This document shows positions 9,885 to 59,050 of a stretch of 61,584 nt of DNA, in pieces (within the stretch, counting starts at the first letter, position 1; every line of letters begins with the position of its first letter). The notes beneath the pieces are model-generated. The model was given only the letters and a program-made list of their open reading frames with translations. It ran no database searches and was not told the origin of the DNA. A program made the translations under genes and the position numbers. This stretch comes from Gemmatimonadales bacterium (lineage in GTDB: Bacteria; Gemmatimonadota; Gemmatimonadetes; Gemmatimonadales; GWC2-71-9): NCBI GenBank assembly GCA_037916975.1, contig JBAIWX010000009.1, positions 1 through 61,584 of the forward strand, given 5' to 3'.

Positions 9885-10352
9885 ATGCCGATCCCCGCGC
9901 TGCCCGCACTCCTCTGGACCCTGCTCACGACGCCGCAGGCGCCCGCCGCGCCGGATGCCTGCGCCCTCCTCGGGCTCGACCGGATCGGCGTCGTCCTCGG
10001 CCGGGGCTGGCGCCGAGCGGAGGGACCGCCGACTCCGCCCGGGACGAGCCGCTGCGAGTGGCGCCGTGGCGCGAGCGAGTCGGCGGTCCTCACCGTCACC
10101 CCCGTGGCGGACGGCGACGCGCGCGCCGCACTCGGCCTCCGCCAGGCCGGCCACCAGCGGCTGGGCCGCAGCGTCACGCCGCTCCCGACGGTCTGCGACG
10201 GTGCCTTCGCGGTCGAGATCACGGCGACGAGCCACGTCACCACGGCCGCGCGCCGCACCTGGCTCCTGGACGCCCAGGTGCGGATGACCGGGCGGCCGAA
10301 CGCCAGTGCCGAGCGCTCGCTCCTCGTCTTCGCCTGCCAGGGGATTCCCTGA
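9885..10352 (+). CDS. Hypothetical secreted protein (155 aa, 4 Cys)
   Basis: Hydrophobic N-terminus, high GC3 and plausible composition. No family recognised. Confidence 0.45.
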   Translation: MPIPALPALLWTLLTTPQAPAAPDACALLGLDRIGVVLGRGWRRAEGPPTPPGTSRCEWRRGASESAVLTVTPVADGDARAALGLRQAGHQRLGRSVTPLPTVCDGAFAVEITATSHVTTAARRTWLLDAQVRMTGRPNASAERSLLVFACQGIP

Positions 10353-12103: not shown

Positions 12104-12112
12104 GCCGGGTGC

Positions 12113-12141
12113 GGGCGGGCGGGCCGAGTGCCCGTCCGCCC
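12113..12141 (+). terminator. GC-rich hairpin downstream of the propeller gene
   Basis: GGGCGGGCGGGC-CGAGU-GCCCGUCCGCCC is a 12-bp stem including one G-U pair. It starts 10 nt after the stop codon. Confidence 0.5.
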
Positions 12142-12190
12142 GTGACCGGTCGTCCGCCGATGGCGGCGGCAGGGGCGATTACCATTCGTC

Positions 12191-13747
12191 ATGCCCGAGG
12201 CCCCTGCCCCGCCAGCGGCGCGCTCCTCATCCTTCCATCCTGCCGCGCCCCTCGCCATCGCGGCGCTCTCGCTCGTCCTGCACGTCCTGCCGCGGCCCGG
12301 CTACGGGTTCCACCGCGACGAACTCCTCTACCTCGCGATGGGCGACCACTTCACGCCCTTCGGCATGGCCTTCCCGCCGCTCATCTCGGCGCTCGCCCGG
12401 CTCTCCGGGGCGCTCCCGTTCGACCGCCTCGCCGCGATCCACCTCCTGTCGGCGCTCGCCGGCGCAGCGCTCCCGCTCCTCGCCGCCCTGACCGCCGCCG
12501 CCATGGGCGGGGCCGTGCGCGCGCAGCGGCTCGCCGCCGTCGCCGCGCTCGTCGCACCGCTCTTCCTCCGCGCGGGCACGCTCTTCCAGCCGGTCGTCTT
12601 CGAGCTCGCCGGGTGGTCGGTCGCGACGCTGGCGTTCTCCGCGCTGCTCGCGGGCCGGGACCGGCGCTGGTGGCTGGTGCTCGGTGCGGCGCTCGGCCTC
12701 GGCGCGCTCACCAAGTTCAGCGTCGCGTTCCTGGGCGCGGGGCTCCTCGCCGGCACCCTCGCGTCACCCCTGCTCCGCGCCGACCTGCGCACCCGCTGGC
12801 CGTGGCTGGCGCTCGGCATCGCCGCGCTGCTCGCGCTGCCGAGCCTCGCGGGGCAGGCGGCGCACGGCTGGCCCTTCTTCGCCCAGGCGCGCGCGCTGCG
12901 GGAGCGGCAGTTGAGCCACGTGGACCCGGTCGGCTTCCTGCTGGGGCAGTTCTTCCTCCTCGGCGCCGGGGGACCCCTCTGGGTGATCGGCCTCGCGGGG
13001 CTCGTCGCCGCGCGCGCACTCCGCCCGTGGCGCCCGCTGGGCGTCACGGCGCTCGCGGTGCTGCTCCTGCTCGTGGCGGGCCGAGGGAAGGACTACTACT
13101 ACGGGCCGATGCTCGTCCCCCTCCTCGCCGCCGCCGCGGTGCTGCTCGGTGCGTGGCTCGAGCGCGGGCGGCACCGCCTCGCGGAGGGGGCGATGCTCGC
13201 ATGGCTGCTGGTGGTCGGCGCCCTGCTGCTGCCGGTCGGGATACCGCTCCTGCGGCCGCCCGCGATGGCGCGCTACGCCGAGCGGCTCGGCCTCGCCCCC
13301 GCCACGCGCACGAACACCGGCGGCGCGCTCCCGCTGCCGCAGGACTACGCCGACATGCTGGGATGGCGGGGGCAGGTGGAGGCGGTGGCCGCCGTGTATC
13401 GCACGCTGCCCGCGGACGAGCAGCGGCGGGCCGTCGTCCTCGCCACCAACTACGGACGCGCCGGCGCGCGCGCGCACTTCGGGCCCGAGCTCGGGCTTCC
13501 CTACCCCGTGAGCTGGGCCGGCGACTTCTTCCTGTGGGGACCCGGGGACCGCCCCGGCGACGTGACGATCGTCGTCGGCGGCTCGGCCGACGACTGGCGC
13601 GCGTTCTGGGGGGACGTGACCGAGGTCGCCCGCGCACGCAACCCGTGGGGCGTCGAGGAGGAGCGCGACGTCGCCATCTGGGTCTGCCGCGCACCGAAGG
13701 TCACGCTGCAGGAGTTCTTCCGCCGGCTCGGCCCGCAGTGGGGCTGA
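12191..13747 (+). CDS. GT-C fold glycosyltransferase (family 39/83, ArnT/PMT-like)
   Basis: 518-aa polytopic membrane protein with an N-terminal GYGFHRDELLYLAMG loop and many TM segments. Confidence 0.75.
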   Translation: MPEAPAPPAARSSSFHPAAPLAIAALSLVLHVLPRPGYGFHRDELLYLAMGDHFTPFGMAFPPLISALARLSGALPFDRLAAIHLLSALAGAALPLLAALTAAAMGGAVRAQRLAAVAALVAPLFLRAGTLFQPVVFELAGWSVATLAFSALLAGRDRRWWLVLGAALGLGALTKFSVAFLGAGLLAGTLASPLLRADLRTRWPWLALGIAALLALPSLAGQAAHGWPFFAQARALRERQLSHVDPVGFLLGQFFLLGAGGPLWVIGLAGLVAARALRPWRPLGVTALAVLLLLVAGRGKDYYYGPMLVPLLAAAAVLLGAWLERGRHRLAEGAMLAWLLVVGALLLPVGIPLLRPPAMARYAERLGLAPATRTNTGGALPLPQDYADMLGWRGQVEAVAAVYRTLPADEQRRAVVLATNYGRAGARAHFGPELGLPYPVSWAGDFFLWGPGDRPGDVTIVVGGSADDWRAFWGDVTEVARARNPWGVEEERDVAIWVCRAPKVTLQEFFRRLGPQWG

Positions 13748-14612: not shown

Positions 14613-14969
14613 ATGAAGTACCTGTGCCTCATCTACGACGAGGAGTCCAAGCTCGCGGCCATGCCCAAGGACCAGGCCGACGCCTTCATGGGCGAGTACT
14701 TCGCCTTCACCGACGACATCCGACGGAGCGGCCACTACGTGGCGGGCGAGGCGCTGCACCCCGTCGCCGCCGCCACCACGGTCCGCATCCGGAACGGGAA
14801 GCTCTCGACCACCGACGGGCCGTTCGCGGAGACGAAGGAGCAGCTGGGGGGCTTCTACCTCATCGAGGCGCGCGACCTCAATGACGCCATCCAGGTCGCG
14901 TCGCGCATCCCGTCGGCGCGGATCGGCAGCGTCGAGGTTCGTCCGGTGATGGACTTCAGCCAGCCCTGA
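14613..14969 (+). CDS. YciI family protein
   Basis: MKYLCLIYDEE..., DGPFAETKEQLGGFYLIEARDLNDA. GGAGGGAA lies upstream of the ATG. Confidence 0.85.
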   Translation: MKYLCLIYDEESKLAAMPKDQADAFMGEYFAFTDDIRRSGHYVAGEALHPVAAATTVRIRNGKLSTTDGPFAETKEQLGGFYLIEARDLNDAIQVASRIPSARIGSVEVRPVMDFSQP

Positions 14970-14980
14970 CGGCCGACCGG

Positions 14981-16231
14981 ATGGAGGAGGGCGCGGACGA
15001 CCGGGTCCGGGCGCAGGTCGAGGCGACCTGGCGGGCCGAGTCGCGCCGCGTCCTCGCCACGCTCATCCGCCTCCTCGGCGACTTCGACCTCGCCGAGGAG
15101 GCGCTGCACGACGCGTTCATGGCGGCGCTCGAGCGCTGGCCCGCGGAGGGCGTGCCGCGGAATCCGCGCGCGTGGCTCGTCTCGGCAGGGCGCTTCCGCG
15201 CGATCGACGGGCTCCGCCGGCGCGCGCGCTTCGACGCGGCGCAGGGCGCGCTCGCCGAGCGGCTCGCGGCGGTGCCCCCGCCGGAACTTCCCGACGACGG
15301 CGTGGAGGATGACCGGCTCCGCCTGGTCTTCACCTGCTGCCATCCCGCGCTCGCGCCCGACGCGCAGGTGGCGCTGACGCTCCGGACCGTCTGCGGGCTC
15401 GCGACGGAGGAGATCGCCCGCGCCTTCCTCACCACCCCCGCGACGATCGCGCAGCGCATCGTCCGCGCGAAGGCGAAGATCCGCGACGCGCGGATCCCCT
15501 ACCAGGTGCCGGAGCGGGCCGACCTGCCGGCGCGCCTCGACACGGTGCTGCACGTCGTCTACCTCGTCTTCAACGAGGGCTACTCCGCCACCGCCGGCGC
15601 TGCGGTCACGCGCCATGACCTGTCCGAGGAGGCGATCCGCCTCGGCCGGCTGCTCGCCGAACTCCTCCCCGAGCCGGAGGTGCTCGGCCTGCTCGCGCTC
15701 ATGCTGCTGCACGAGGCGCGGCGCGCGGCGAGGACGTCACCGGACGGCGATCTCGTCCTCCTCGACCGGCAGGATCGCGCGCGCTGGGACGGTGCGCTCA
15801 TCGCCGAGGGGGCGGGGCTCGTGGAGCGCGCCATCGCCACCCGCCGCTTCGGGCCGTTCACGTTGCAGGCGGCGATCGCCGCGGTCCACGCCGAGGCGCC
15901 GAGCGCGGAGACGACCGACTGGGCGCAGATCGTCGGCCTCTACGACGTCCTGCGACGCGCCGACCCGTCACCGGTGGTGGAGCTCAACCGCGCCGTCGCC
16001 GTGGCGATGCGGGACGGCCCGGCGGCGGGGCTCGCGCTCGTGGAGGCGCTCCTCGCGCGCGGGGAGCTCGCCGACTACCACTTGGCGCACGCCGCGCGGG
16101 CCGACCTGCTCCGCCGGCTGGGCCGGGTGGACGAAGCCCGCGCCGCGTACGTGCGCGCGCTCGCGCTCGCCCGGCAGGAGCCGGAGCGGCGGTACCTCGA
16201 GGGAAGGCTCCGGGAGTTGGAAGGAAGATGA
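14981..16231 (+). CDS. Sigma-70 family (ECF-like) RNA polymerase sigma factor with a long C-terminal extension
   Basis: Region 2 is [21 protein letters not shown]. Region 4 is [39 protein letters not shown]-terminal domain of about 200 aa follows. YciI plus this sigma type is a recurrent gene pair. Confidence 0.85.
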
Positions 16232-21075: not shown

Positions 21076-24000
21076 ATGGCAGTCCGCTCGTCTCCCGCCC
21101 GCGTGGTCAGCGGGCTCTTCCTTCTCGTCATCGCGGCGGCCGCGCCGTCGTCCGCGCAGGACACGCTGCCGCCCGCCCTGGGCGGCCGGGTGCCATCGCT
21201 CGGCCTCCCCGCGCAGTTCAAGCCGTACTACGGCGCCGCCGCCGGCCTCGAGTCGCGCGACGGCGACACCCACCTCGCGAGCCAGCTCCGCCTCGGCGTC
21301 TTCCGCGACGTCGGCAGCCCCGTCAACGAGCTCCTGGGCTGGAGCGTGGAGTACCGCCTCGGCCTCGAGGATACGCACCTCGACCAGGGGGTCCGCGCCC
21401 TCCTCACCACGCACGCGCTCGGCCTCGCCGTCGGCGGCGAGCTGGGACTGCGCCGGGGCGACGCGCGGTTCGTCGTCGCCGTGCTGCCGCCGATCCGCCG
21501 GGGCGGGCCGGTCGGGGCGGGGAGCGAGCTCCGCGTCGAGTGGACCCACGGCCACGGCGACGCGCTCGCGGTGGCGGTCAACGTTCCCATCGGCCAGCCG
21601 AACCTCGGCCACACCCGCCCGCACGCGACGCGCGTGTCCCTCGGCGAGCCGCCCGAGCCCGCCGTGTCGCTCCCGCCGCCCGACACCGCGCTGGGGGTGA
21701 TCCTCGCCCGCATGGCGCGCCAGGCGTCGTGGGTCGCCCGCTTCGTCGCCCCGCCGCTGGGCGGCTTCTCGACCAACCTGCCGAGCGAAGTCGGTGCAGC
21801 CGTGCGCCCGCTCCGCGACCGCCTGGCCGACGGCGCGCCCGACCTCCCCGGCCCGCACGGCGTGGCCGACGAGTTCGCCGCGTGGCACCGGGCGGTGCGG
21901 GAGGCGTTCGCGCTCACCGTCGGGGCGCTGCCCCCGCCGCCCGGCACCACGACGCCGCTCGGCGACACCGTCGCCGCCCGGGCGCGGGCGATCCTCCTCG
22001 AGCGCGTCCTGCTGCCGTGGAACGGGCTCCTCGGCCAGGCGAAGGACGGCAGCACGCGCGAGTTCGCGCAGCATGCGCGCGGCGCCTTCGCGCGCTGGCT
22101 CATGATGCGCTCGTCCGTCCCCCCCGCTCTCCACGATGCCACCCTGCAGGTCTTCGACGCGCTGCTCGCCGACGTCGAGGCGGTCCGGCGGGAGGCGCAG
22201 CGCACGTGGGATGACTCGCGGCTGGTGTGGCTGCCGCTCCAGCTCGCCCTCGAGCCGGGCGAGTACGGCTCGCAGGAGGAACTCGACTCGCTCGTGAGCC
22301 ACGCCGTCGGCCGCTCGTTCCAGAAGGGCAACCGCCTCCGGTACGTCCACAACGACCGCTTCCTGACCGACCTCATCGCCTCGATCGGCGAGGCGCGCGA
22401 GTACCACGTCCTCTGGATCCACGACGTGCGCGGGCGGACGCCGGCCGGGCGCCCGGACCGGCTCTCCCTGCTCGTCGCCACGCACGCCTACCTCACGGCG
22501 CTCCGCGACCGGGTGCGGGAGTACGACGCCACCGGCCGCCTGCCGCTCTACATCGTCCTGCTCGACCAGCACTACTTCGAGCAGAACCGGAGCCGGGAAC
22601 TCCTCCGCTTCCTGCAGGACCCGCTGCGCCGCCGGCTCGACCTCCCCGACGGCAGCGACTCCCTCGCCGGCGCGATGCGGCACGCGCAGGAGGAGCTGCG
22701 GGCGGCCGTGGCCGACTCCCGCCTCCTCGCGGCGGAGCGCGCCCGGTACGGCGAGGCGTGGCTCCACGACCAGGTGAAGGTGCACGTGAACATCACCTTC
22801 CCGGCCGACCCCTCCTTCCGCAGCGCGCAGATCCTGCCGCTCATCGGCGTGCCCGACGACATCATGCGGGACCACCGGAAGGTGGCGCTCTGGGACGTGA
22901 GCGAGGAGGACCCGTACCGCGGGATGGCGATGTACGCGGGGATGGGCGTGGGCGAGCACTACGCCGGCCCGGGGTGGGAGGACCGGGCGGTGATGCTGCA
23001 GGGCCCCGCGGCGCTCAAGTGCCGCGACCAGGTGCGCGTCCTCCTCGCGGCGCAGGGGATGCGCCCGTGGGAGATCCCGCACGTCCTGCGGCCGCGGCCG
23101 CGCGCCCCGGACTACGACACCCGCGTCCAGGCGGAGATCGACAGCACCGACCGCATCGGCCTCGCCGCGACCCGCGCGCTCGACCTGCACAACGCCCCCG
23201 GCTTCGCGCTCAAGGAGGCGAGCGTGGCGGAGGCGGTCGTGTTCAGCCTCACCGCGCCGGGCGGGGTGGTGAAGGTGCCGGACTCGATCTGGATCAACCA
23301 GCTGCTCGCCTCCCTCCTCACCGGCGCCAGCCTGCGCGGGACGCGCGTCCTCCTCATCGCCCCCGCGCAGTCCACGGCGTCCGCGGGCAACTGGATCAAC
23401 CTCGTCCTGATCCACGACCTCTTCACGCGCCTGCTCGTGGCGCGCGACAGCCTCGCCCCCGTCCTCGCCGCGTCGGGCGGCGTGCTGGCCCCGGGGATCT
23501 ACGAGGCCGACATCGGCGTGGACGACCTCCAGGAGCGCCTCCGGCGCCTCGCGCGCCGCCTGCGCCAGGAGCCGATGCTGCGCGACCTCTACGCCTTCGC
23601 CCCCGCCACCACGACGCTGCTCGACAGCGCCGAGCAGCAGGTCGGGCCGCTCCCGGCGCGGGCCGGCGCGCCCCTGCCCTCGGAGCAGGCCGGCAACGGC
23701 CGCCCGCGGCTCCACTTCAAGGGCTACCTCTACGTCTCCGCCGAGGCGTGGCGGTTCATCGTGAGCGGCGTGCCGATGACCGCGGGCTTCCGCGAGTACC
23801 TGACCCAGCGCGCGCGCCAGGTGCGCGAGGGCCCGGCGGTGGACGAGGGGGTCATGGCGGAGGCGATGCAGCGGGTCGGCGCGATGACGATCAACCCGCT
23901 CATCGACTCGCTCGCCCGGCTCGTGCCGGACTGCCACCTGAGCGCGGTGGACTGCGCGACGCACCGGTGGGTGTTCTACCTCGCCATCGGCTCGGCGAAC

Positions 24001-24201
24001 CAGGACTACCGCAGCATGCTCATGGACGGCGAGGCGATGTTGCTCGTCTCCAAGTGGACGGCGCTCTACGCCCTGCCCGACTTCGTCATGCTCACCGGGC
24101 TCACCGCCTGGCCGCGCACCCCCGCCGACCTCGACCGGTACCTCCCGCCGCCCGCCGATTTCAGGCGCTGGTTCGCCTGGGGCGTGCGCAAGGCATTCTG
24201 A
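21076..24201 (+). CDS. Large secreted protein with two phospholipase-D/cardiolipin-synthase-like HKD motifs (atypical, one split)
   Basis: Signal peptide MAVRSSPARVVSGLFLLVIAAAAPSSAQD. Motif 1 starts at H600: HRKVALWD...YAGMGVGEHY...WEDRAVMLQGPAA. Motif 2 is H880 HFKGYLYV, then about 90 aa, then YLAIGSANQDYRSMLMDGEAMLLV. Confidence 0.7.
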   Translation: MAVRSSPARVVSGLFLLVIAAAAPSSAQDTLPPALGGRVPSLGLPAQFKPYYGAAAGLESRDGDTHLASQLRLGVFRDVGSPVNELLGWSVEYRLGLEDTHLDQGVRALLTTHALGLAVGGELGLRRGDARFVVAVLPPIRRGGPVGAGSELRVEWTHGHGDALAVAVNVPIGQPNLGHTRPHATRVSLGEPPEPAVSLPPPDTALGVILARMARQASWVARFVAPPLGGFSTNLPSEVGAAVRPLRDRLADGAPDLPGPHGVADEFAAWHRAVREAFALTVGALPPPPGTTTPLGDTVAARARAILLERVLLPWNGLLGQAKDGSTREFAQHARGAFARWLMMRSSVPPALHDATLQVFDALLADVEAVRREAQRTWDDSRLVWLPLQLALEPGEYGSQEELDSLVSHAVGRSFQKGNRLRYVHNDRFLTDLIASIGEAREYHVLWIHDVRGRTPAGRPDRLSLLVATHAYLTALRDRVREYDATGRLPLYIVLLDQHYFEQNRSRELLRFLQDPLRRRLDLPDGSDSLAGAMRHAQEELRAAVADSRLLAAERARYGEAWLHDQVKVHVNITFPADPSFRSAQILPLIGVPDDIMRDHRKVALWDVSEEDPYRGMAMYAGMGVGEHYAGPGWEDRAVMLQGPAALKCRDQVRVLLAAQGMRPWEIPHVLRPRPRAPDYDTRVQAEIDSTDRIGLAATRALDLHNAPGFALKEASVAEAVVFSLTAPGGVVKVPDSIWINQLLASLLTGASLRGTRVLLIAPAQSTASAGNWINLVLIHDLFTRLLVARDSLAPVLAASGGVLAPGIYEADIGVDDLQERLRRLARRLRQEPMLRDLYAFAPATTTLLDSAEQQVGPLPARAGAPLPSEQAGNGRPRLHFKGYLYVSAEAWRFIVSGVPMTAGFREYLTQRARQVREGPAVDEGVMAEAMQRVGAMTINPLIDSLARLVPDCHLSAVDCATHRWVFYLAIGSANQDYRSMLMDGEAMLLVSKWTALYALPDFVMLTGLTAWPRTPADLDRYLPPPADFRRWFAWGVRKAF

Positions 24202-26390: not shown

Positions 26391-27095
26391 ATGTACGACG
26401 TCATCGCCTTCGACGCCGACGATACCCTCTGGCACAACGAGCCGCACTTCCACGAGACCCAGCGCCGCTTCGGGGAGCTGCTCTCGCGCTACCACGCGCC
26501 CGAGTGGATCGCGGAGCGGCTCTACGCCACCGAGCTGCGGAACCTCCGGCACTTCGGCTACGGCATCAAGGGCTTCACCCTCTCAATGATCGAGACGGCG
26601 ATCGAGCTCACCGAGGGACGCGTCTCGGGCGACGAGGTGCGGCAGGTCCTCGAGTGGGGCCGCGAGATGACGACCGCGCCCGTCGAGCTCCTCGACGGCG
26701 TTGCCGACACGATCCGCGCCCTCGCCGGACGGTACCGGCTCATGCTCGTCACCAAGGGCGACCTCTTCGACCAGGAGGGGAAGCTCGCCCGCTCGGGGCT
26801 CGGCGACTTCTTCGACGTGGTCGAGGTCACCGCCGACAAGACCCCGGCCACCTACGCCGGCATCCTGCAGCGGCACGGCGTCGCGTCGCGTCGCTTCCTG
26901 ATGGTGGGGAACTCCCTCCGCTCGGACGTCCTCCCGGTGCTGGACGTGGGCGGCACCGCCATCCACATCCCCTACCCGCTCACCTGGGCGCACGAGCAGG
27001 TGGATCCCTCGGCGCTCGAGGGCCGCCCCTTCGTGCAGCTCGAACGGATCGGTGAGGTGCCCGGCTGGCTCGAGGCCGCCGGCGCGCAGGGCTGA
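26391..27095 (+). CDS. HAD superfamily hydrolase
   Basis: MYDVIAFDADDTLW (DxDxT), LVTKGD, MVGNSLRSD. Confidence 0.8.
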   Translation: MYDVIAFDADDTLWHNEPHFHETQRRFGELLSRYHAPEWIAERLYATELRNLRHFGYGIKGFTLSMIETAIELTEGRVSGDEVRQVLEWGREMTTAPVELLDGVADTIRALAGRYRLMLVTKGDLFDQEGKLARSGLGDFFDVVEVTADKTPATYAGILQRHGVASRRFLMVGNSLRSDVLPVLDVGGTAIHIPYPLTWAHEQVDPSALEGRPFVQLERIGEVPGWLEAAGAQG

Positions 27096-31472: not shown

Positions 31473-31499
31473 TGAGATGCATCCAATCCCGTGAAGGTT
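31473..31499 (-). promoter_or_regulatory. ECF-type promoter candidate (site A) for the small ORF
   Basis: The minus strand reads CGCAACCTT-CACGGGATTGGATGCA(16)-TCTCA, located in a locally AT-richer patch. Confidence 0.4.
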
Positions 31500-31557
31500 G
31501 CGTAAGGGCCTCCCCCACCCGGCCGGTCGGCCAGGCCCAGGGGGCCCCCCCCCACGC

Positions 31558-31585
31558 AACCCTATTCGGCGGGGGCGGTGTCAGA
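31558..31585 (+). promoter_or_regulatory. ECF-type promoter candidate (site C), probably the autoregulated promoter of the sigma/anti-sigma operon
   Basis: GCAACCCT-ATTCGGCGGGGGCGGTG(17)-TCAGA, ending 38 nt upstream of the GTG start at 31624. Confidence 0.4.
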
Positions 31586-31623
31586 GGGACGTCACGCAGG
31601 CCGTACCACCCGCGGGGATCACA

Positions 31624-32157
31624 GTGGACGAACCGGAACTGATCGCCCGCACCCTCGCGGGAGACCCGGCGGCGGAACGGGCGCTGTTCGAGGCGCACGT
31701 GGACCGGGTCTACCGGCTCGCGTACCGGATCACGGGCGATCCGGACGTGGCGCAGGACTGTGCGCAGGACACCTTCATCCGCGCCTTCCAGCGCCTCGGG
31801 ACCTTCCGGGGCGATTCGAAGCTCGGCACCTGGCTCGGAGCCATCGCCATCTCCACCGCGCTCAATGCGGTGCGGAGCCGGAAGCGGGGGGAGCGGTTCA
31901 GCGCCCCCCTCGACGAGGCGGTCGAGTCGGGGCAGCTCCCCGTCGCCGCGGACCCGGACCTCCGGGACCGGCTCCATGCGGCGATCGACGGCCTCCCCGA
32001 CGGCTACCGGACGGTGTTCCTCCTGCACGACGTGGAGGGCTACACCCACGAGGAGATCGGGCAGCTCCTCGGCGTGCAGTCCGGGACCTCGAAGGCCCAG
32101 CTGTTCCGCGCCCGCGCGAAGCTGCGCGACGCGCTCGCGGATTTCGCGCTCGGCTGA
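31624..32157 (+). CDS. ECF (group IV) RNA polymerase sigma factor
   Basis: GTG 31624. It carries LFEAHVDRVYRLAYRITGDPDVAQDCAQDTFIRAF (region 2) and YRTVFLLHDVEGYTHEEIGQLLGVQSGTSKAQLFRARAKLR (region 4). Confidence 0.9.
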   Translation: MDEPELIARTLAGDPAAERALFEAHVDRVYRLAYRITGDPDVAQDCAQDTFIRAFQRLGTFRGDSKLGTWLGAIAISTALNAVRSRKRGERFSAPLDEAVESGQLPVAADPDLRDRLHAAIDGLPDGYRTVFLLHDVEGYTHEEIGQLLGVQSGTSKAQLFRARAKLRDALADFALG

Positions 32158-39200: not shown

Positions 39201-40304
39201 GTGACCCCGAACCGCCTCGCTCCCCTCGCCCTCCTCGGCGCGGTGGCCATCGGCTGCGCCGCCACCGCGGAGAAGGCCGCCCCGCCCGTGACGCTCGCGC
39301 AGGACGCCGCGCTCGCCGCCACCTTCGGCGGGGTGAGCAACGTGGTCGAGCTCGCCGACGGGCGCGTCGCCTTCGCCGACACGAAGGACAAGCGCTTCCT
39401 CCTCGCCGACTTCGCGACCGGCAAGGTGGACACCGTGGGGACCCAGGTGGACTCGCTCGCGGGCGACGCCGCGGGCCAGTACAAGTTCCCCGGCGCCGTC
39501 GCACACCTGGCCGGCGACACCCTCGCCCTCGTGGACTTCGCCGCGACGCGCACCACGCTCTGGACCGACCGGGGCGCCTTCGCCCGCGTGCTCCCGCTCC
39601 CGGCGGTGGGCGGCGCCACCCCGGTGCTCACGTACGACCGGGCGGGCCACGGCTACAAGACCGACTTCACCGCGGTGCTGGGCGGCGGGGAGCCGGGCAC
39701 GCCGGTCCGCCCCGACAGCCTCGCCGTGCTCCGCATCTCGCTCGGGAACGGGGCGGTGGACACGGTGGCTCGGCTCAGCGCCCCCGAGTACGGCGACGCG
39801 ACGTTCGGCGAGCAGGTGCAGTCGGTCGCGAAGGTGTTCGGCCCCAACGACGCCTTCGGCGCCACCGCCGATGGCGCCGTCTGGGTGGCGCGGGCGCGCA
39901 GCTTCTCGGTGGACTGGCGCGCGCCCGACGGGACGTGGACCCGCGGGAAGCCGCACGCCTGGACGAAGGTGCCGGTGACGGAGGCGGACCGAGCGGCGGT
40001 GCTCGAGCGGCTCTACGCGCGCGGGCTCCCGAAGGGGGTCGAGGTCAAGTTCCCCTTCGCCGAGACGAAGCCCGCGTTCGAACTGGCGCTCACGCGCGCG
40101 ACGGGCGAGGTCTGGCTCCAGTACAGCCGCGCGAAGGACACCGACGCCGCGCGCTACGCGGTGTTCGGCCGGGACGGGGCGTTCGTGCGCGACGCCATCG
40201 CGCCCGCGGGCGTGCTGCTCGCGGGCGTGGGCGCGACGAAGGCGTACGGGGTGACGAAGACGGCGGACGGGCGGCGGCAGCTGGTGCGGCTCGCCGTGCC
40301 CTGA
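39201..40304 (+). CDS. Lipoprotein P4, paralogue of P2 and P3
   Basis: GTG 39201 follows AGGAG and gives VTPNRLAPLALLGAVAIGC (lipobox). It shares the C-terminal block GEVWLQYSRAKDTDAARYAVFGRDGAFVRDAIAP. Confidence 0.7.
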   Translation: MTPNRLAPLALLGAVAIGCAATAEKAAPPVTLAQDAALAATFGGVSNVVELADGRVAFADTKDKRFLLADFATGKVDTVGTQVDSLAGDAAGQYKFPGAVAHLAGDTLALVDFAATRTTLWTDRGAFARVLPLPAVGGATPVLTYDRAGHGYKTDFTAVLGGGEPGTPVRPDSLAVLRISLGNGAVDTVARLSAPEYGDATFGEQVQSVAKVFGPNDAFGATADGAVWVARARSFSVDWRAPDGTWTRGKPHAWTKVPVTEADRAAVLERLYARGLPKGVEVKFPFAETKPAFELALTRATGEVWLQYSRAKDTDAARYAVFGRDGAFVRDAIAPAGVLLAGVGATKAYGVTKTADGRRQLVRLAVP

Positions 40305-40307
40305 CGC

Positions 40308-41030
40308 TCAGTCCATGATCGGCGGCGGGGCGTCGGGCGGCACCGGCGGCTCGCGGTCGGTCTTCCGGCGGTCGCGGCGCTGGCCCTCCTCGTACCAGCG
40401 CCGCGTGATCTCCCCCGCGAGGTCGCGGTTCCCGAGCCCGAAGGCGAGGCCGGCCGCGAGGGCCACGGCGCCGAGGATGAGCGTGAAGGCGCTCGTCACG
40501 ATCTCCTCGGCGACGCCCACCTGCTGCAGCGCCATGAACATCGCGATGAGCACCACGACGCCCTTCGCCACCTTGGCCACGGTGGGGACCCCGCTCACCG
40601 TCCCCGCCGAGGCGAGGATCACGGCGCGCACGAACTCGCCCACGATCATCCCCAGGATGACGATCACGATCCCCACGATGAGCGTGGGGATGAAGGCGAG
40701 CATCCGCCCGAAGGTCTCGTTGATGCTCTCGAGCCCGAGTGCCGCGCTCGCGAGGAGGATGACCACCAGCATCACGAGCCAGAACAGGAGGTTCGCGAAG
40801 GCGCGCACCGGGTCGAGGTGCGTGCCGGTCCGGACCACCACCTGGTCGAGTCCCTGCTCCTTCGCCACCCGGTTGAAGTCGAGCCGCTTGAGGGTCTGGT
40901 CGGCCCACTTCTGCAGCTGCCGCGCGAGCAGGTAGCCCGCGAGGAGGATGAGGAGCGCCGCCAGGAAGGCGGGCGCCACCTCGAGGATCTGCGCGCCGCC
41001 GGCGCGCAGCCGGTCCAGCAGCTCGTTCAC
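40308..41030 (-). CDS. Membrane protein with conserved-TM-helix repeats (MscS-associated TM_helix-like)
   Basis: GTG 41030 overlaps the upstream stop (GTGA). It has four TM segments, repeats ending LAFGLGNRDLAGEI, and a charged C-terminal tail. Confidence 0.6.
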   Translation of the reverse strand: MNELLDRLRAGGAQILEVAPAFLAALLILLAGYLLARQLQKWADQTLKRLDFNRVAKEQGLDQVVVRTGTHLDPVRAFANLLFWLVMLVVILLASAALGLESINETFGRMLAFIPTLIVGIVIVILGMIVGEFVRAVILASAGTVSGVPTVAKVAKGVVVLIAMFMALQQVGVAEEIVTSAFTLILGAVALAAGLAFGLGNRDLAGEITRRWYEEGQRRDRRKTDREPPVPPDAPPPIMD

Positions 41031-42064
41031 GTCGCCACCTCGATCACGAGTTTGCCCGCCTGCGCGCCCCGCGCCATGCGGGCGTACGCCTCGCGCGCCT
41101 GCGCGAGCGGCACCACGCCGTCCACCCTCGGCCGGAGCCTGCCCTCCCCCGCGAGCGCCGCGAGCGCGGCGAACTCCGCGCGGCTCCCCATCGTGCTGCC
41201 GAGGAGCGACCACTGGTGCCAGAAGAGCTTCCGCACGTCGAGCTGCACCATCGGCCCGCCGGTGGCGCCGCACGTGACTAGGCGGCCCCCGCGCCGGAGC
41301 GCGCGGAGCGAGCGCGTCCACGTCGGCTCGCCCACCGTCTCGACCACCACGTCGGCGCCGCGGTTCGCCGTGACCCGCCGCACCACGGCGAGCACGTCGC
41401 CGGTGGCGTGGTTGACCACGTGGTCCGCGCCGAGCGCCCGCGCGACGGCGAGCTTCGCGTCGTCGCCGCTCGTCGCGACGACGGTGGCGCCGAGGTGCTT
41501 CGCCACCTGCACCGCCGCCTGCGCCACGCCGCCACCCGCGCCCCACACGAGCACCGTCTCCCCGGCGGCGACGCGCGCCCGCGTCGCGAGCATCCGCCAC
41601 GCGGTGAGCGTCGCGAGCGGGAAGGCCGCCGCCTCCGCCCAGCTGAACCCGGCCGGCGCCGGCGCGAGGTTCGCCTCCGGCACCACGACGTAGTCGGCCA
41701 TCGTCCCGTGGCGGTGCTCCCCCAGGAGCTGGAAGGCGGGGCAGAGCGACTCCTCGCCCGCCCGGCACTCGGCGCAGGTGCCGCAGGAGAGGCCGGGGTT
41801 CAGCATCACGCGGTCGCCGGGACGCACCGCGGTCACCGCGCTCCCGACGGCGTCCACCACCCCCGCCCCGTCGGCGCCCACCACGTGCGGGAAGGCGTAC
41901 GCCACGCCCGGGAGGCCGTCGGCGACGAAGAGGTCGAGGTGGTTGAGCGCCGCGGCGTGCACGCGCACGCGCACGTCGTGCGGGCCGTCGAGCGCGGGGA
42001 CGGGGAGGTCCACCAGCGCGAGGTGCTCCGGCCCGCCGGTGGCGGTGAGCGCGAGCGCGCGCAT
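41027..42064 (-). CDS. Zinc-type alcohol dehydrogenase / quinone oxidoreductase (MDR superfamily)
   Basis: MRALALTATGGPEHLALVDLPVP, GADGAGVVDAVG, CGTCAECRAGEE, LVWGAGGGVAQAAVQVAK. Confidence 0.9.
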   Translation of the reverse strand: MRALALTATGGPEHLALVDLPVPALDGPHDVRVRVHAAALNHLDLFVADGLPGVAYAFPHVVGADGAGVVDAVGSAVTAVRPGDRVMLNPGLSCGTCAECRAGEESLCPAFQLLGEHRHGTMADYVVVPEANLAPAPAGFSWAEAAAFPLATLTAWRMLATRARVAAGETVLVWGAGGGVAQAAVQVAKHLGATVVATSGDDAKLAVARALGADHVVNHATGDVLAVVRRVTANRGADVVVETVGEPTWTRSLRALRRGGRLVTCGATGGPMVQLDVRKLFWHQWSLLGSTMGSRAEFAALAALAGEGRLRPRVDGVVPLAQAREAYARMARGAQAGKLVIEVAT

Positions 42065-48020: not shown

Positions 48021-48920
48021 TCACGCGGCCACCACGCCGGCCGCCCGCAGCACCCACCACACGCCCACCACCACGCCCGCGGCGCCGACCAGGCGCGCCG
48101 CCAGCCGGCCCCACGCGAGCGACCGCTCCGCCGCCTGCCGCATGGCGAGCGCCGCCACGGACGCGAAGAGCGTCATCCCCACGATCGTCCCGCACCCGAA
48201 GGCGAGCAGGTAGCCGAGCCCGAGCCCCTTGCTCCGGAGCAGGGTCACGGGGAGGAGCGCCACCACGGCGCTCGTCCCCGCGAGGCCGTGCATCAGCCCC
48301 ACGAGGGTGATCCCCTGGTGGTCGTGCGCGTGGCCGCCGGGGCCGTGGCGGTGGGGATGGTGCGGGTCGTGGCGGGCGTCGTGCGCGTGGGCCGGCGCGT
48401 GCTCGTGCGGGTGCGGGTGCGGGTGGCCGGCCGCGGCGTGGTCGTGCCCGTGGCCGGGCGCGTCGGGATGGTGGTGCCCCGCGTCGTCGTGCGGGTGATG
48501 GTGCGCCGAGCCGTCGTGGTGGTGGTGCGCGTGCTCGTGCGCGGGGTCGCCGGGATGCGCGTGGAGGTGGGCGTGGCCGCCGTGCCCGGCGGGGTCGTGC
48601 AGGTGGAGCCGCGCCGCGGAGCGGAACGCCCAGAGGCCGAGCCCGACGAGCATGAGGCCGACGACGCCCTCGCCGAGCGCGTCGAGCCGGTCGGGGAGCC
48701 GGAGGCCGGTCACGAGCAGCACGCCGCCGGCGAGGAGCACCGCCGCCGAGTGCCCCACGCCCCAGCGGAAGCCGAAGTTCGCCGCGGTGGCGAGGGCCGG
48801 CCGCCGCGTGACGAACGCCGTCACCGCCAGCATGTGGTCCACCTCGAGGGCGTGCAGGAAGCCGAGCAGGCACGCCGTGCCGAGCACCACCAGGGATTCC
48901 ACCGTCACCCTCCGCCGCAC
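48021..48920 (-). CDS. NicO/RcnA-like nickel/cobalt transporter with a very long His-rich loop
   Basis: It has TM segments, LHALEVDHM, FRWGVGHS and GLMHGLAGTSA. The central loop has 38 His in residues 106-201. Confidence 0.7.
   Translation of the reverse strand: MRRRVTVESLVVLGTACLLGFLHALEVDHMLAVTAFVTRRPALATAANFGFRWGVGHSAAVLLAGGVLLVTGLRLPDRLDALGEGVVGLMLVGLGLWAFRSAARLHLHDPAGHGGHAHLHAHPGDPAHEHAHHHHDGSAHHHPHDDAGHHHPDAPGHGHDHAAAGHPHPHPHEHAPAHAHDARHDPHHPHRHGPGGHAHDHQGITLVGLMHGLAGTSAVVALLPVTLLRSKGLGLGYLLAFGCGTIVGMTLFASVAALAMRQAAERSLAWGRLAARLVGAAGVVVGVWWVLRAAGVVAA
48318..48608 (-). repeat. Low-complexity coding region (His/Pro/Ala/Gly/Asp) of the transporter loop
   Basis: HLHDPAGHGGHAHLHAHPGDPAHEHAHHHHDGSAHHHPHDDAGHHHPDAPGHGHDHAAAGHPHPHPHEHAPAHAHDARHDPHHPHRHGPGGHAHDH. 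Confidence 0.8.
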
Positions 48921-48955: not shown

Positions 48956-50035
48956 ATGTCCGACACGCCCCGCGACCAGCGGCCCGCGATCCGGCTCTCG
49001 AGCCTCTCCCACGGCGCCGGCTGAGCCTGCAAGCTCGGGCTCGCCGAGTTGACGCACGTGTTGCGTCAGGTGCCGGGGATCGCCGACGACCGCGTCCTGG
49101 TGGATGCCTCCACCCGCGACGACGCGGCGGTGTACCGGATCGCGCCCGACCGGGCGCTCGTGGCCACGGTGGACTTCTTCACGCCGATCGTGGACGATCC
49201 CGGCACGTGGGGCGCCATCGCCGCCGCGAACGCGCTGAGCGACGTCTACGCGATGGGCGGGACCCCGCTCTTCGCGCTCAATATCGCGGGGTGGCCGCGC
49301 GAGCGGCTCCCCCTCGAGCTGCTGGGCGAGGTGATCGCGGGCGCCGGCCGCGTGGCGCGCGCCGCGGGGTGCCTCGTGCTCGGCGGCCACACCGTGGACG
49401 ATCCCGAGCCCAAGTTCGGGATGGCGGTGACCGGCGAGGTGCACCCCGACCGGATGCTCGTGAACGCCGCCGCGCGCCCCGGCGACCGGCTCGTGCTCAC
49501 CAAGCCGCTCGGCACCGGGATCCTCACCACCGCGTTCAAGCGGGACGCGATCGGCGAGGCGGACCTCGCCGCCGCGGTGGCGAGCATGACGGCGCTCAAC
49601 GCCGGCGCCGCGCGCGCCGCGGTGGCGACCGGCCTCCGCGCCGCCACCGACGTGACGGGGTTCGGCCTCCTGGGCCACCTGGGCGGGATGCTCGAGGCGA
49701 GCGGCGCCGCCGCCGAGCTCGCAATCGACGCGCTGCCGCTCCTCGCGGGTGCCCTCGACCTCGCAGGGCGGGGCTTCGTGCCGGGCGGCACGCGCCGGAA
49801 CCTCGAGGCGGCGCGCGTCACGTGGGACCCGTCGCTCGGCGAGGCGGAGCGGCTGCTCGCCGCCGACGCGCAGACCTCGGGCGGGCTCCTGCTCGCGGTG
49901 CCGCCGGCGCGGCTCGACGCGCTGCTCGCCGCGCTCGCCACCGAGGGGACGCTGGCGCGCGCGGTGATCGGCCGCGTGGTCGCGGGCGAGCCCGGCCGCA
50001 TCACGGTGCGGCGCACCATCGACCCGGTAAGCTAG
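48956..50035 (+). CDS. selD: Selenide, water dikinase (selenophosphate synthetase) with in-frame UGA (Sec) at codon 23
   Basis: ATG 48956 gives MSDTPRDQRPAIRLSSLSHGAG-[TGA 49022..49024]-ACKLGLAELTHVLRQV..., in frame with track ORF 49049..50035. The rest is colinear with SelD: TRDDAAVY, VDFFTPIVDDP, SDVYAMGG, GGHTVDD, TDVTGFGLLGH, QTSGGLL. Confidence 0.85.
49032..49068 (+). promoter_or_regulatory. Candidate bacterial SECIS region (two adjacent hairpins downstream of the UGA)
   Basis: Hairpin 1 (49032..49050) is AGCUCGG-GCUCG-CCGAGUU. Hairpin 2 (49050..49068) is UGACGCA-CGUGU-UGCGUCA, a perfect 7-bp stem with G/U residues in the loop. Confidence 0.5.
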
Positions 50036-50052: not shown

Positions 50053-50280
50053 ATGTCGCCCGTCCGCTGGACCCCCGAGATGATGGACCGCCTCGAGCAG
50101 GCCGCCCGCCGGGGGCTGCGCGTCCAGGTGTCGCGCCGCGGCACCGAGTACGTCGTCGTCGCGCGCGCGGTGCGGAGCGTCGGCCGCGACGAGGCGCTGG
50201 TCGGCTTCCTCCCCATGACCGGCGAGGAGCTCACCTTCCGCCTCGCCGACCTCGACGACTTCCAGGTGCTCGGCACGTGA
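50053..50280 (+). CDS. Small hypothetical protein (75 aa)
   Basis: MSPVRWTPEMMDRLEQAARRGLRVQVSRRGTEYVVVARAVRSVGRDEALVGFLPMTGEELTFRLADLDDFQVLGT. Its stop overlaps the rnhA GTG. Confidence 0.5.
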   Translation: MSPVRWTPEMMDRLEQAARRGLRVQVSRRGTEYVVVARAVRSVGRDEALVGFLPMTGEELTFRLADLDDFQVLGT

Positions 50281-54158: not shown

Positions 54159-55358
54159 ATGTCCTCCCCCGACATCGTCTTCCTGAGCGCCGTCCGCACC
54201 GGCTTCGGCACCTTCGGCGGCACGCTCAAGGACTTCTCCGCCACCGAGCTCGCCACCCTCGCCGCCACCGAGGCGATCGCCCGGAGCGGCCTCGCCGCCG
54301 ACGACGTGGGCCACGTCATCGTCGGCAACGCGCAGCAGACCTCCGCCGACGCCATCTACCTCGCCCGCCACGTCGGCCTCGGGGCGGGCTGCCGCATCGA
54401 GACCCCCGCCGTCACGGTGAACCGCCTCTGCGGCTCCGGGTTCGAGGCGGTGGTCCAGGGGGCGCAGCGGATCCTGCTGGGCGAGTGCCGCGCGGTGCTC
54501 GCCGCCGGGACGGAGAGCATGAGCCAGGCGCCGCACGTCGTGCGCGGCGCGCGCTGGGGGATCCGCTTCGGGCAGTCGCCGCCGTTCGAGGACTCGCTCG
54601 CGCAGGCGCTCACCGACTCCTGGTGCCGGCTCCCGATGGCGGAGACGGCGGAGAACCTGGCGCGGCAGTACGGCATCTCGCGCGAGGACTGCGACCGCTT
54701 CGCGCTCCAGAGCCAGGAGCGCGCGCGCGACGCCTGGGCCGCCGGCACCTTCGCCGAGGAGGTGATTCCCGTCCCCGTTCCCGACCGGAAGACGAAGCAG
54801 CCCGCGCCCTGGGCGGCGGACGAGCACATCCGGCCGGCGACCACGCTCGAGTCGCTCGCGAAGCTGGCCCCCGCCTTCCGGAAGGACGGGATCGTGACCG
54901 CGGGGAACGCCTCCGGCATCAACGACGGCGCGGCGGCCCTCGTCGTCGCGGACGCGGCGCTCGCGCGGGAGCGGGGCCTGAAACCGCTCGGCCGGCTCGT
55001 CTCGTACGCGGTGGCGGGCGTGGACCCGTCCGTCATGGGGATCGGCCCGGCGCCGGCGGCCCGCGAGGCGCTGGCCCGTGCGGGGCTCGCGCTCGCGGCG
55101 ATGGACCTCGTGGAGGTGAACGAGGCCTTCGCCGCGCAGTACCTCGCGGTCGAGCAGGAGCTGGGGCTCGACCGCACGCGCACCAACGTGCACGGCGGGG
55201 CGATCGCGATCGGCCACCCGCTCGGTGCCAGCGGCGCCCGGATCACCGCGCACCTGCTCCACGCGCTCCGGCGCACCGGCGGCCGCTACGGCCTCGGCAG
55301 CGCCTGCATCGGCGGCGGCCAGGGGATCGCCGTCGTCGTCGAGTCGCTCCCGGCCTGA
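54159..55358 (+). CDS. Acetyl-CoA C-acetyltransferase (thiolase II)
   Basis: IVFLSAVRTGFGTFGG, VNRLCGSG (nucleophile Cys), NVHGGAIAIGHPLGASGARI, GLGSACIGGGQGIA. Confidence 0.9.
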   Translation: MSSPDIVFLSAVRTGFGTFGGTLKDFSATELATLAATEAIARSGLAADDVGHVIVGNAQQTSADAIYLARHVGLGAGCRIETPAVTVNRLCGSGFEAVVQGAQRILLGECRAVLAAGTESMSQAPHVVRGARWGIRFGQSPPFEDSLAQALTDSWCRLPMAETAENLARQYGISREDCDRFALQSQERARDAWAAGTFAEEVIPVPVPDRKTKQPAPWAADEHIRPATTLESLAKLAPAFRKDGIVTAGNASGINDGAAALVVADAALARERGLKPLGRLVSYAVAGVDPSVMGIGPAPAAREALARAGLALAAMDLVEVNEAFAAQYLAVEQELGLDRTRTNVHGGAIAIGHPLGASGARITAHLLHALRRTGGRYGLGSACIGGGQGIAVVVESLPA

Positions 55359-57144: not shown

Positions 57145-58043
57145 CGGCGCCCGGCCCCATCCCCGGCCTCACCTGCGTCGGCGTCGCCGGCGCGGGACAG
57201 ATGGGGAGCGGCATCGCGCAGGTGGCGGCGGCCGCCGGCTACGCCACCGTGGTGCGGGACGTGGACGCCGCCGGGCTCGAGCGGGCGCGCGCCGGGATCG
57301 CGAAGTCCCTCGGCAAGCTGGTCGAGAAGGGCCAACTCGACGCCGCCACGCGGGACGCCGCCCTGGGCCGCCTCACCTTCACCACCGACCTCGGCGCCCT
57401 GGGCGCGGCCGGCCTCGTGATCGAGGCGATCCCCGAGGAGCTCGGGCTCAAGACGGACCTCTTCCGCGCCCTCGACGCCCGCTGCGCGCCGGACGCGATC
57501 TTCGCCACCAACACCTCGAGCCTCACCGTCGCCGCCATGGCGGCGGCGAGCGGCCGCCCCGACCGGTTCGCCGGGCTCCACTTCTTCAATCCCGTCCCGC
57601 TGATGCCGCTGGTCGAGGTGGTCCGCTGCGTCACCACGAGCGACGCCACCCACGCCCGCGCGCTCGCCTTCGCGCGGAGCCTCGGCAAGACCGCCATCGA
57701 GGCGCGGGACGCGAGCGGGTTCGTCGTGAACCTCCTCCTCGTCCCCTACCTGCTCGACGCAGTGCGGGCCTACGAGCGGGGGGTCGGGACGATCGCGGAC
57801 ATCGACGCGGGGATGACGCTGGGCTGCGGGCACCCGATGGGGCCGTTGACCCTGCTGGACTTCGTGGGGCTCGACACGGTGGTGAAGATCGGCGAGATCA
57901 TGTTCGACGAGTACCGCGAGGCGCGCTACGCCCCGCCGCCGCTCCTCCGGCGCATGGTGCTCGCCGGCTGGCTCGGCCGGAAGAGCGGGCGCGGCTTCTA
58001 CGACTGGTCGGCGACGCCGCCCCGCCCGGTGGAGGTCCGGTGA
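57141..58043 (+). CDS. 3-hydroxyacyl/3-hydroxybutyryl-CoA dehydrogenase
   Basis: GTGA overlap with the upstream gene. It carries VGVAGAGQMGSGIA, IEAIPEELGLK, NTSSL, HFFNPVPLMPLVEV and GFVVNLLLVPYL. Confidence 0.9.
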   Translation: MTAPGPIPGLTCVGVAGAGQMGSGIAQVAAAAGYATVVRDVDAAGLERARAGIAKSLGKLVEKGQLDAATRDAALGRLTFTTDLGALGAAGLVIEAIPEELGLKTDLFRALDARCAPDAIFATNTSSLTVAAMAAASGRPDRFAGLHFFNPVPLMPLVEVVRCVTTSDATHARALAFARSLGKTAIEARDASGFVVNLLLVPYLLDAVRAYERGVGTIADIDAGMTLGCGHPMGPLTLLDFVGLDTVVKIGEIMFDEYREARYAPPPLLRRMVLAGWLGRKSGRGFYDWSATPPRPVEVR

Positions 58044-58570: not shown

Positions 58571-59050
58571 TCAGTGCTGCCGGTAGAACCGCCCCGGCCC
58601 CGCAGTCCCGTACATCTCGACCTTCCACCAGAGCGGCGTGAGCGAGTCGGGGAACGCGGTGAACCGTACCCGCTCCCCCGTCGGCGTCCCGTCGGGCCGG
58701 GTGAACTTCACCACCAGCTCGTTGTCCTCGAGGTACCAGGTCGCCGGCTGCTCCACCGGGCCCTTGCCCAGGACCTCGGTGCGGAGCGTGGCGTGGCTGT
58801 CGGGGCCGAGGAAGAGTTCGCGCACGAGGCCCCGGACGTCGGCGGCGCGGAGCGTGTCGGTGCGCCAGACCCCGTCCATCGGCGGGAGGGGGATCGTGTC
58901 CGGCTGGTAGGCGGGGTAGATGGACGCCGCCGGCTTCTCCGGCCAGCGTGGCGTGCGGCCGCGGTTGCGTTCGAGCTCGGAGCTGGCAGGGAGGCAGGCG
59001 GCGGCCGCGAGGGCGGCGAGGACGAGCGGGAGGGTGCGGGGACCGGCCAT
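58571..59050 (-). CDS. Hypothetical lipoprotein
   Basis: ATG 59050 gives MAGPRTLPLVLAALAAAAC (lipobox). Its start overlaps the stop of the DUF116-like gene (TGATG). Confidence 0.55.
   Translation of the reverse strand: MAGPRTLPLVLAALAAAACLPASSELERNRGRTPRWPEKPAASIYPAYQPDTIPLPPMDGVWRTDTLRAADVRGLVRELFLGPDSHATLRTEVLGKGPVEQPATWYLEDNELVVKFTRPDGTPTGERVRFTAFPDSLTPLWWKVEMYGTAGPGRFYRQH

Follow-up and report, generated by a model that had tools for sequence, protein, structure and literature searches.

The selenophosphate synthetase SelD is itself a selenoprotein in several bacteria (with examples in Haemophilus influenzae, Aquifex aeolicus, Geobacter and Clostridium), where selenocysteine (Sec) stands in the motif GxG-U-x-C/S-K, and the Cys17 and Lys20 residues of SelD (E. 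coli numbering) are essential for catalysis. No bacterial selenoproteins are more widespread than FdhA and SelD (PMC1794560), SelD ranking as the second most widespread family (PMC1794560, PMC13188914), and in SelD conversions of Sec to Cys have been described (PMC1794560). The Sec-containing form of SelD is likewise well documented, as is its misannotation (PMC1794560, PMC13188914, PMC13326102). [quoted passage not shown] 2 legend).

No paper on Sec-SelD in Gemmatimonadota was found in the literature; TGA-type selD genes are nonetheless present in public MAGs of the phylum. The locus considered here lies in a window (the whole stretch of DNA analysed, 61.6 kb long) with a base composition of about 75% GC. 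It resembles the Sec-SelD of other bacteria in its TIGR00476 family membership, in the Cys17 column concerned, and in the succession of an in-frame UGA and a stem-loop within the coding region, and differs from them in its host, a Gemmatimonadota-like genome of about 75% GC. As developed below, the UGA at 49022-49024 very probably encodes Sec at position 23 of SelD, yielding a full-length product (Table 1).

Table 1. Features of the selD locus and its surroundings, in window coordinates.
Feature	Position	Strand	Remarks
Divergent His-rich membrane protein	48021..48920	-	35-nt gap to the selD ATG; context only, outside the Sec element
Full-length selD CDS	48956..50035	+	ATG at 48956, 359 codons including predicted Sec23, stop TAG 50033-50035
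Predicted Sec-encoding UGA, codon 23	49022..49024	+	Motif HGAG-U-A-C-K
Proximal hairpin	49032..49050	+	7 bp, loop GCUCG; -10.4 kcal/mol folded alone; begins at the 8th nt after the UGA
Distal hairpin, putative SelB-binding SECIS	49049..49069	+	Stem 49049/49050-49056 with 49062-49068/49069, loop CGUGU at 49057-49061
Truncated public gene call P0001, 325 aa	49058..50035	+	GTG start, begins MLRQVPGIADD
75-aa ORF between selD and RNase HI	50053-50280	+	4-nt overlap with the start of RNase H; no family match
SAM methyltransferase, 202 aa	51771-52379	+	About 1.7 kb downstream of selD; weak TehB (tellurite resistance)/TPMT-type similarity, far below cutoffs

A full-length selD gene interrupted by one in-frame TGA

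The selD translation runs from the ATG at 48956 through MSDTPRDQRPAIRLSSLSHGAG to the TGA at 49022-49024, continues with ACKLGLAELTHV... and ends at the TAG at 50033-50035, this TGA being the only one within the 359-codon frame. In the mechanical ORF list the gene appears only as 49049..50035, with a TTG start. The initial annotation had read the frame upstream from the same ATG and across the same TGA, noting that the ORF track displays just the part from 49049 onwards, and every one of these coordinates is confirmed. The 22 codons upstream of the TGA have a GC3 of 1.0 and conserved residues, and beyond the TGA the frame is undisrupted and its composition strongly that of a coding sequence. 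The ATG is further backed by two closer metagenomic relatives, L081 (M-S-D...DQRP-IRL) and L082 (M-S-S...DQRP-LRL), each of which has, as in the window, an ATG six codons ahead of DQRP.

Of all TGA codons in the window, only that of selD is flanked on either side by in-frame sequence of coding character (GC3 ≥ 0.95), if a trivial gene junction at 55356 is disregarded; the other in-frame stops flanked by coding signal were discarded, as they are TAG or TAA codons in the antisense frames of real genes, together with the junction at 55356. TGA otherwise serves as a normal stop: of the 49 called genes of the window that reach a stop codon, 33 finish on it. The code is therefore the standard one, and a reassignment of TGA was rejected. 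In Longimicrobiales, what seemed a conserved gene upstream of selD (ORF cluster 17) proved to be an artefact, namely the stop-to-stop frame closed by the Sec TGA itself.

Scored against family models with the TGA read as Cys, the translation (359 residues) exceeds the cutoffs of both TIGR00476 (selD; 379 bits, cutoff 125) and NF002098 (357.7 bits, cutoff 299), in alignments that start at residue 10-13, upstream of the TGA, and cross it. Its best solved-structure match is E. coli SelD (3U0O, E = 4.6e-78, residues 11-351), on which U23 aligns with Cys17, C25 with Cys19 and K26 with Lys20, so that the N-terminal glycine-rich loop is present; this alignment supports the earlier reading of the gene as a SelD whose TGA falls on the E. 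coli Cys17 column. The AIRS (PF00586) and AIRS_C (PF02769) domains are precomputed on the public protein P0001 and on every listed homologue. On sequence grounds, 48956-50035 is a gene for a full-length selenophosphate synthetase, with a predicted ATP-dependent activity.

The public gene model covers 91% of the query at 100% identity and is devoid of the catalytic Sec/Cys-Lys loop. It forms a singleton cluster in the protein collection, with a nearest relative 73-76% identical, and the relatives with the highest similarity to the window in the aligned part (74-76%) are cut short too, at L[AST][QH]VLRH. Automatic gene callers had been predicted to truncate this gene, and the database protein of 325 aa, starting from 49058, does precisely this. 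The deposited 325-aa model is wrong, the correct one being 48956-50035 with a Sec translation exception at 49022.

Sec- and Cys-type selD genes among relatives

How is the catalytic column encoded elsewhere? With one genome per GTDB species, 80 SelD loci were retrieved and each was read in frame upstream of the match, the closest being Gemmatimonadota MAGs at 64-69% identity. The catalytic codon is TGA in 47 of the 80 orthologues and TGC or TGT in the other 33, so that a UGA aligned with Cys, the expected Sec/Cys pair, is found with 33 orthologues. TGA-type genes occur in Gemmatimonadota MAGs (L001, L024, L049 and L057) and are spread over Actinomycetota, Chloroflexota, Verrucomicrobiota, Bacillota, Planctomycetota, Marinimicrobia and others, and the DNA of L081 and L082 shows the same succession of an ATG, 22-24 codons, HGAG, TGA and ACKLG. 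The alignment of the Cys/Sec column proposed in the initial annotation hence places a TGA there in 47/80 loci, plus L081 and L082. The best 120 database clusters comprise 114 full-length Cys-type proteins, 6 truncated ones and none with an annotated U.

Three Gemmatimonadota loci (L002-L004) carry Cys-type selD, and the window is 64-73% identical to the Cys-type orthologues of this phylum. Cys-type SelD proteins (E. coli SelD 3U0O, and most of the Gemmatimonadales relatives) share with the window product the fold family and the length, and the gene is syntenic with the Gemmatimonadota L001-L004 locus; the differences are a TGC or TGT in place of the TGA, and the lack of a conserved downstream hairpin. 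L001, L002, L004 and partly L003 have in common with the window the neighbouring genes for RNase H, a PD40/Big_2 protein and a thiolase (the last not in L003), and L081 is syntenic with it over the amidohydrolase, the divergent membrane protein, selD, a 73-aa ORF and RNase H. As Gemmatimonadota Sec- and Cys-type selD genes occupy the same syntenic locus, they provide a clean natural comparison for the Sec/Cys exchange.

One of these Cys-type genes (L002, TGC) retains at 9974-10033 a whole first hairpin (AGCUCGG...CCGAGCU) and most of the second (GGCGCAG GUG CUCCGGC), which looks like a SECIS remnant left by a Sec-to-Cys change.

A hairpin conserved downstream of the UGA in Sec-type genes only

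Two hairpins had been proposed downstream of the UGA, the second starting 26 nt after this codon, with a perfect 7-bp stem and a CGUGU loop, and this description holds for the distal hairpin, in which seven Watson-Crick pairs (49050-49068) are extended by a U.G pair (49049/49069) and whose pairing begins at the 26th nt after the UGA. It passes all the bSECIS criteria, with a 5-nt loop, a stem of 7-8 bp, a G at loop position 2, 32 nt between UGA and loop, and an energy of -9.2 to -9.6 kcal/mol. Folding had been suggested in the initial annotation as a check; the stability of the lone sequence (49016-49090) is not significant (z = -0.94 versus shuffles). Because such single-sequence folds are uninformative in DNA of 75% GC, the evidence for the hairpin is taken from the comparison between Sec- and Cys-type genes. 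The outer helix of the window MFE structure (49025-49028 with 49068-49071) was dropped, as its position is not conserved in relatives.

For this comparison, the 60 nt from the codon onwards were aligned without gaps in 48 Sec-type sequences (set A1, including the window) and 33 Cys-type sequences (set A2). At the distal position, 41/48 Sec-type sequences pass the bSECIS criteria versus 0/33 Cys-type ones, and a stricter enumeration of contiguous stems retains 37/48 versus 2/33. Over columns 30-46 (window 49051-49067), 91.2% of the cells are paired in Sec-type genes versus 41.6% in Cys-type genes, the latter value being indistinguishable from controls, and sliding the partner positions lowers Sec-type pairing to 28-44%. 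Double-sided changes affect six of the seven pairs in Sec-type genes. None of 500 shuffles equalled the observed covariation score, percentage paired, number of cells changed on both sides or number of pair types, and a single one equalled the number of pairs with double changes, these statistics overstating independence because the Sec-type sequences are related to one another. RNAalifold folds the Sec set into a hairpin of 8 bp (columns 29-47) and leaves the Cys set entirely unstructured, and the energies of the distal hairpin differ between the two types (p = 3e-12; 1e-5 to 2e-6 after GC matching).

The covariation can be followed at the codon level, where the third position of an Ala/Thr codon changes together with the first position of the Arg/Ser/Gly codon located four codons further on (GCG-CGC, GCU-AGC/AGU, GCC-GGU), and where the Thr codon ACG, which is that of the window, is always partnered by the Arg codon CGU and not by CGC. 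Read from the aligned sequences, the distal covariation is one that couples a synonymous with a nonsynonymous site, independently of the protein. The suggestion that a bacterial SECIS lies in this region is accordingly sustained, the published criteria applying to a hairpin that covaries and is conserved in TGA-type genes only, and we infer that the distal hairpin is the SelB-binding element in the window.

The SECIS of E. coli fdhF offers a useful reference. Its apex (GCA-GGUC-UGC), confirmed against 5,413 E. coli records, is close to the SelD consensus (GCA-GGUN-CUGC) and to the window (GCA-CGUGU-UGC), and as in SelD a small loop bearing GU is found in the coding region downstream of the UGA. 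The two elements differ in that the loop GU lies at positions 37-38 from the UGA in SelD versus 23-24 in fdhF (14 nt further), and in that fdhF has one continuous long stem, whereas SelD has a separate 19-nt hairpin between the UGA and the SelB-type hairpin. The window moreover has no bulged U, and its CGUGU loop differs from the closed G-GUN-C form seen more often, a His codon placing a C at the first loop position.

A second, proximal hairpin

The other hairpin of the initial annotation, said to begin 8 nt after the UGA, is likewise found (49032-49050). Its UGA-to-loop spacing of 14 nt is slightly below the bSECIS minimum of 16 nt. In GC-matched comparisons the proximal region folds at -8.9 kcal/mol in Sec-type versus -3.6 kcal/mol in Cys-type genes (p = 4e-6), and pairing in a fixed register amounts to 72.6% versus 55.8%; the register varies, many Sec-type genes taking GGUCCnnnGGACC instead. 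A few Sec-type genes (L017, L067) have the proximal hairpin only. In BSepDB, an example SelD entry (Acetomicrobium) gives a hairpin at the proximal position as the 'canonical SECIS', which implies that the SelB-binding hairpin may differ between lineages.

The proximal hairpin is possibly a spacer or an accessory part of the SECIS; it could bring the distal one into range, or tune the self-dependent translation of SelD. That most Sec-type SelD mRNAs, including that of the window, carry a two-hairpin recoding element, made of a distal fdhF-like SelB-binding hairpin and a conserved proximal hairpin of about 19 nt, is a tentative proposal to which we give rather low credence. The recurrent two-hairpin layout is mildly unexplained, and is the one feature for which experimental work might prove worthwhile.

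Sec machinery in the window and around other selD genes

No tRNA-Sec was detected in the 61.6-kb window (ARAGORN, and Rfam at gathering thresholds), where Rfam at these thresholds gives no matches at all, and Pfam and NCBIfam scans of the approximately 50 called window ORFs reveal no selA, selB, selU or yqeB/yqeC. Similarly, tblastn with SelA, SelB and SelU probes drawn from other loci (verified at 511, 376 and 359 bits) finds no match in the window or in seven Gemmatimonadota loci, and no selA, selB, selU or tRNA-Sec occurs in the +/-10 kb flanks of the seven Gemmatimonadota relatives. The search for selA, selB, selC and selU that had been recommended for the rest of the genome is thereby covered for the window and for the selD flanks of seven relatives, with none found. 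ARAGORN does report a 93-nt 'tRNA-Gly(GCC)' at 12107-12199 (- strand), of about tRNA-Sec length, which was set aside for its wrong anticodon and the absence of an Rfam tRNA at gathering score; it lies in a very GC-rich region that abuts or overlaps the start of the ORF at 12191-13747, and is probably a false positive.

Elsewhere, a tRNA-Sec is found beside selD in L030, L035, L036, L037, L048 and L062, and selA and/or selB in L035, L036, L037, L042, L048, L062 and L063. Such loci, where selA, selB or tRNA-Sec adjoin selD, belong to Verrucomicrobiota, Bacillota and some Myxococcota-like lineages, and include Sec-type selD in several phyla. Where selU/mnmH adjoins selD, the locus is Cys-type in five cases out of six.

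The initial annotation had further held that the organism decodes Sec. This stands as a strong inference from a SECIS under selection, whereas selA, selB and tRNA-Sec are absent from the 61.6-kb window; binding of SelB, actual insertion of Sec, and the presence of selA, selB and selC elsewhere in the genome are all presumed on the same basis. The GU-containing apical loop of the distal hairpin, 32 nt past the UGA, would direct recoding via SelB, and Sec would be inserted at the UGA in place of termination. The resulting SelD would supply selenophosphate for the charging of tRNA(Sec), so that the full-length translation of the gene would depend on its own product.

Other readings of the TGA

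Could the TGA be a true stop after all, with SelD starting at TTG 49049 or GTG 49058 without its N-terminal loop, and the 22 upstream codons forming a separate short ORF or remaining untranslated? A downstream start would match both the public call (P0001, 325 aa) and the ORF list, and no Sec machinery is visible in the window. The protein made from it, however, would miss the residues equivalent to Cys17 and Lys20, both essential for catalysis, and a true stop is at odds with the protein-level conservation of the upstream segment, its GC3 of 1.0 and its coverage by the family HMMs, besides leaving unexplained a covarying hairpin specific to TGA-type genes, and we regard it as extremely improbable. 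There is an equally slight chance that the TGA stands for an ancestral TGC or TGT Cys codon, from which it is one base away, either through faulty sequencing or assembly or through a recent nonsense mutation that made the gene a pseudogene; the close database relatives are mostly Cys-type (114 of the best 120 clusters). Against this, TGA recurs in 47/80 independent orthologues as well as in L081 and L082, the nearest relatives, the gene is otherwise undamaged and strongly coding in character, and the SECIS hairpin is present here and missing in Cys-type relatives; purifying selection across the clade speaks against the pseudogene version in particular.

The UGA might instead be read through as an amino acid other than Sec (such as Cys or Trp, through suppression that is near-cognate or independent of SelB) following a partial loss of the Sec pathway. 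The lack of Sec machinery in the window and in the flanks of the Gemmatimonadota relatives would agree with such a loss, and SelD can also act in uses of selenium outside Sec, for instance selenouridine or a Se cofactor (PMC1794560). The fdhF-like SelB-type hairpin has nevertheless been kept with compensatory changes, which indicates continued selection by a SECIS-binding factor. We know of no alternative non-Sec decoding for SelD, and consider this reading very improbable, Sec insertion at the UGA remaining the preferred one.

Neighbouring genes

The initial annotation also described a His-rich Ni/Co-type transporter next to selD. The divergent orientation, the His-rich character and the distance of 35 nt are all correct, whereas the label of Ni/Co transporter depends on a sub-threshold match to the nickel/cobalt efflux protein RcnA (NF007454; 33.5 bits for a cutoff of 195, E = 2.5e-8, residues 12-285). 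The score against TIGR00802 is also below the cutoff (18.9 bits, cutoff 333), and no Pfam family matches the gene at E ≤ 0.01. As the RcnA match is near full-length and accompanied by a His-rich loop, a distant RcnA/NicO relationship is plausible but unproven. A divergent gene without a Pfam match is found at the equivalent position in L081.

Downstream of selD lie a conserved 75-aa ORF, then genes for RNase HI, a double-zinc-ribbon protein and a SAM methyltransferase. The 75-aa ORF is probably a real, conserved small protein, given the 73-aa gene at the matching position in L081 (8711-8932). A tie between the methyltransferase and selenium or tellurium methylation would be speculative.

Several other features of the window may be mentioned. 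A 1041-aa ORF (21076-24201, + strand) is strongly coding in composition (GC3 of 0.98) but matched no family of Pfam or NCBIfam at the cutoffs applied. Composition-based calls at 26558-26851, 39653-41693, 57239-57697 and 58638-58910 have GC1 ≤ GC2 and no family matches, and are probably artefacts of a wrong frame or strand. Two genes for ECF-type sigma factors (14613-16231 and 31498-32157) are unrelated to selD, one of them encoding a sigma-70 r2/r4 protein with DUF6596 and TPR and preceded by a YCII-domain gene.

Implications

The current understanding of these genes is unchanged, as the Sec form of SelD, the SECIS that goes with it and the misannotation of such genes were already established (PMC1794560, PMC13188914, PMC13326102). 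What the corrected model brings is to flag a high-GC, Gemmatimonadota-like organism as a probable user of selenocysteine, and hence as a place in which to seek further missed selenoproteins.
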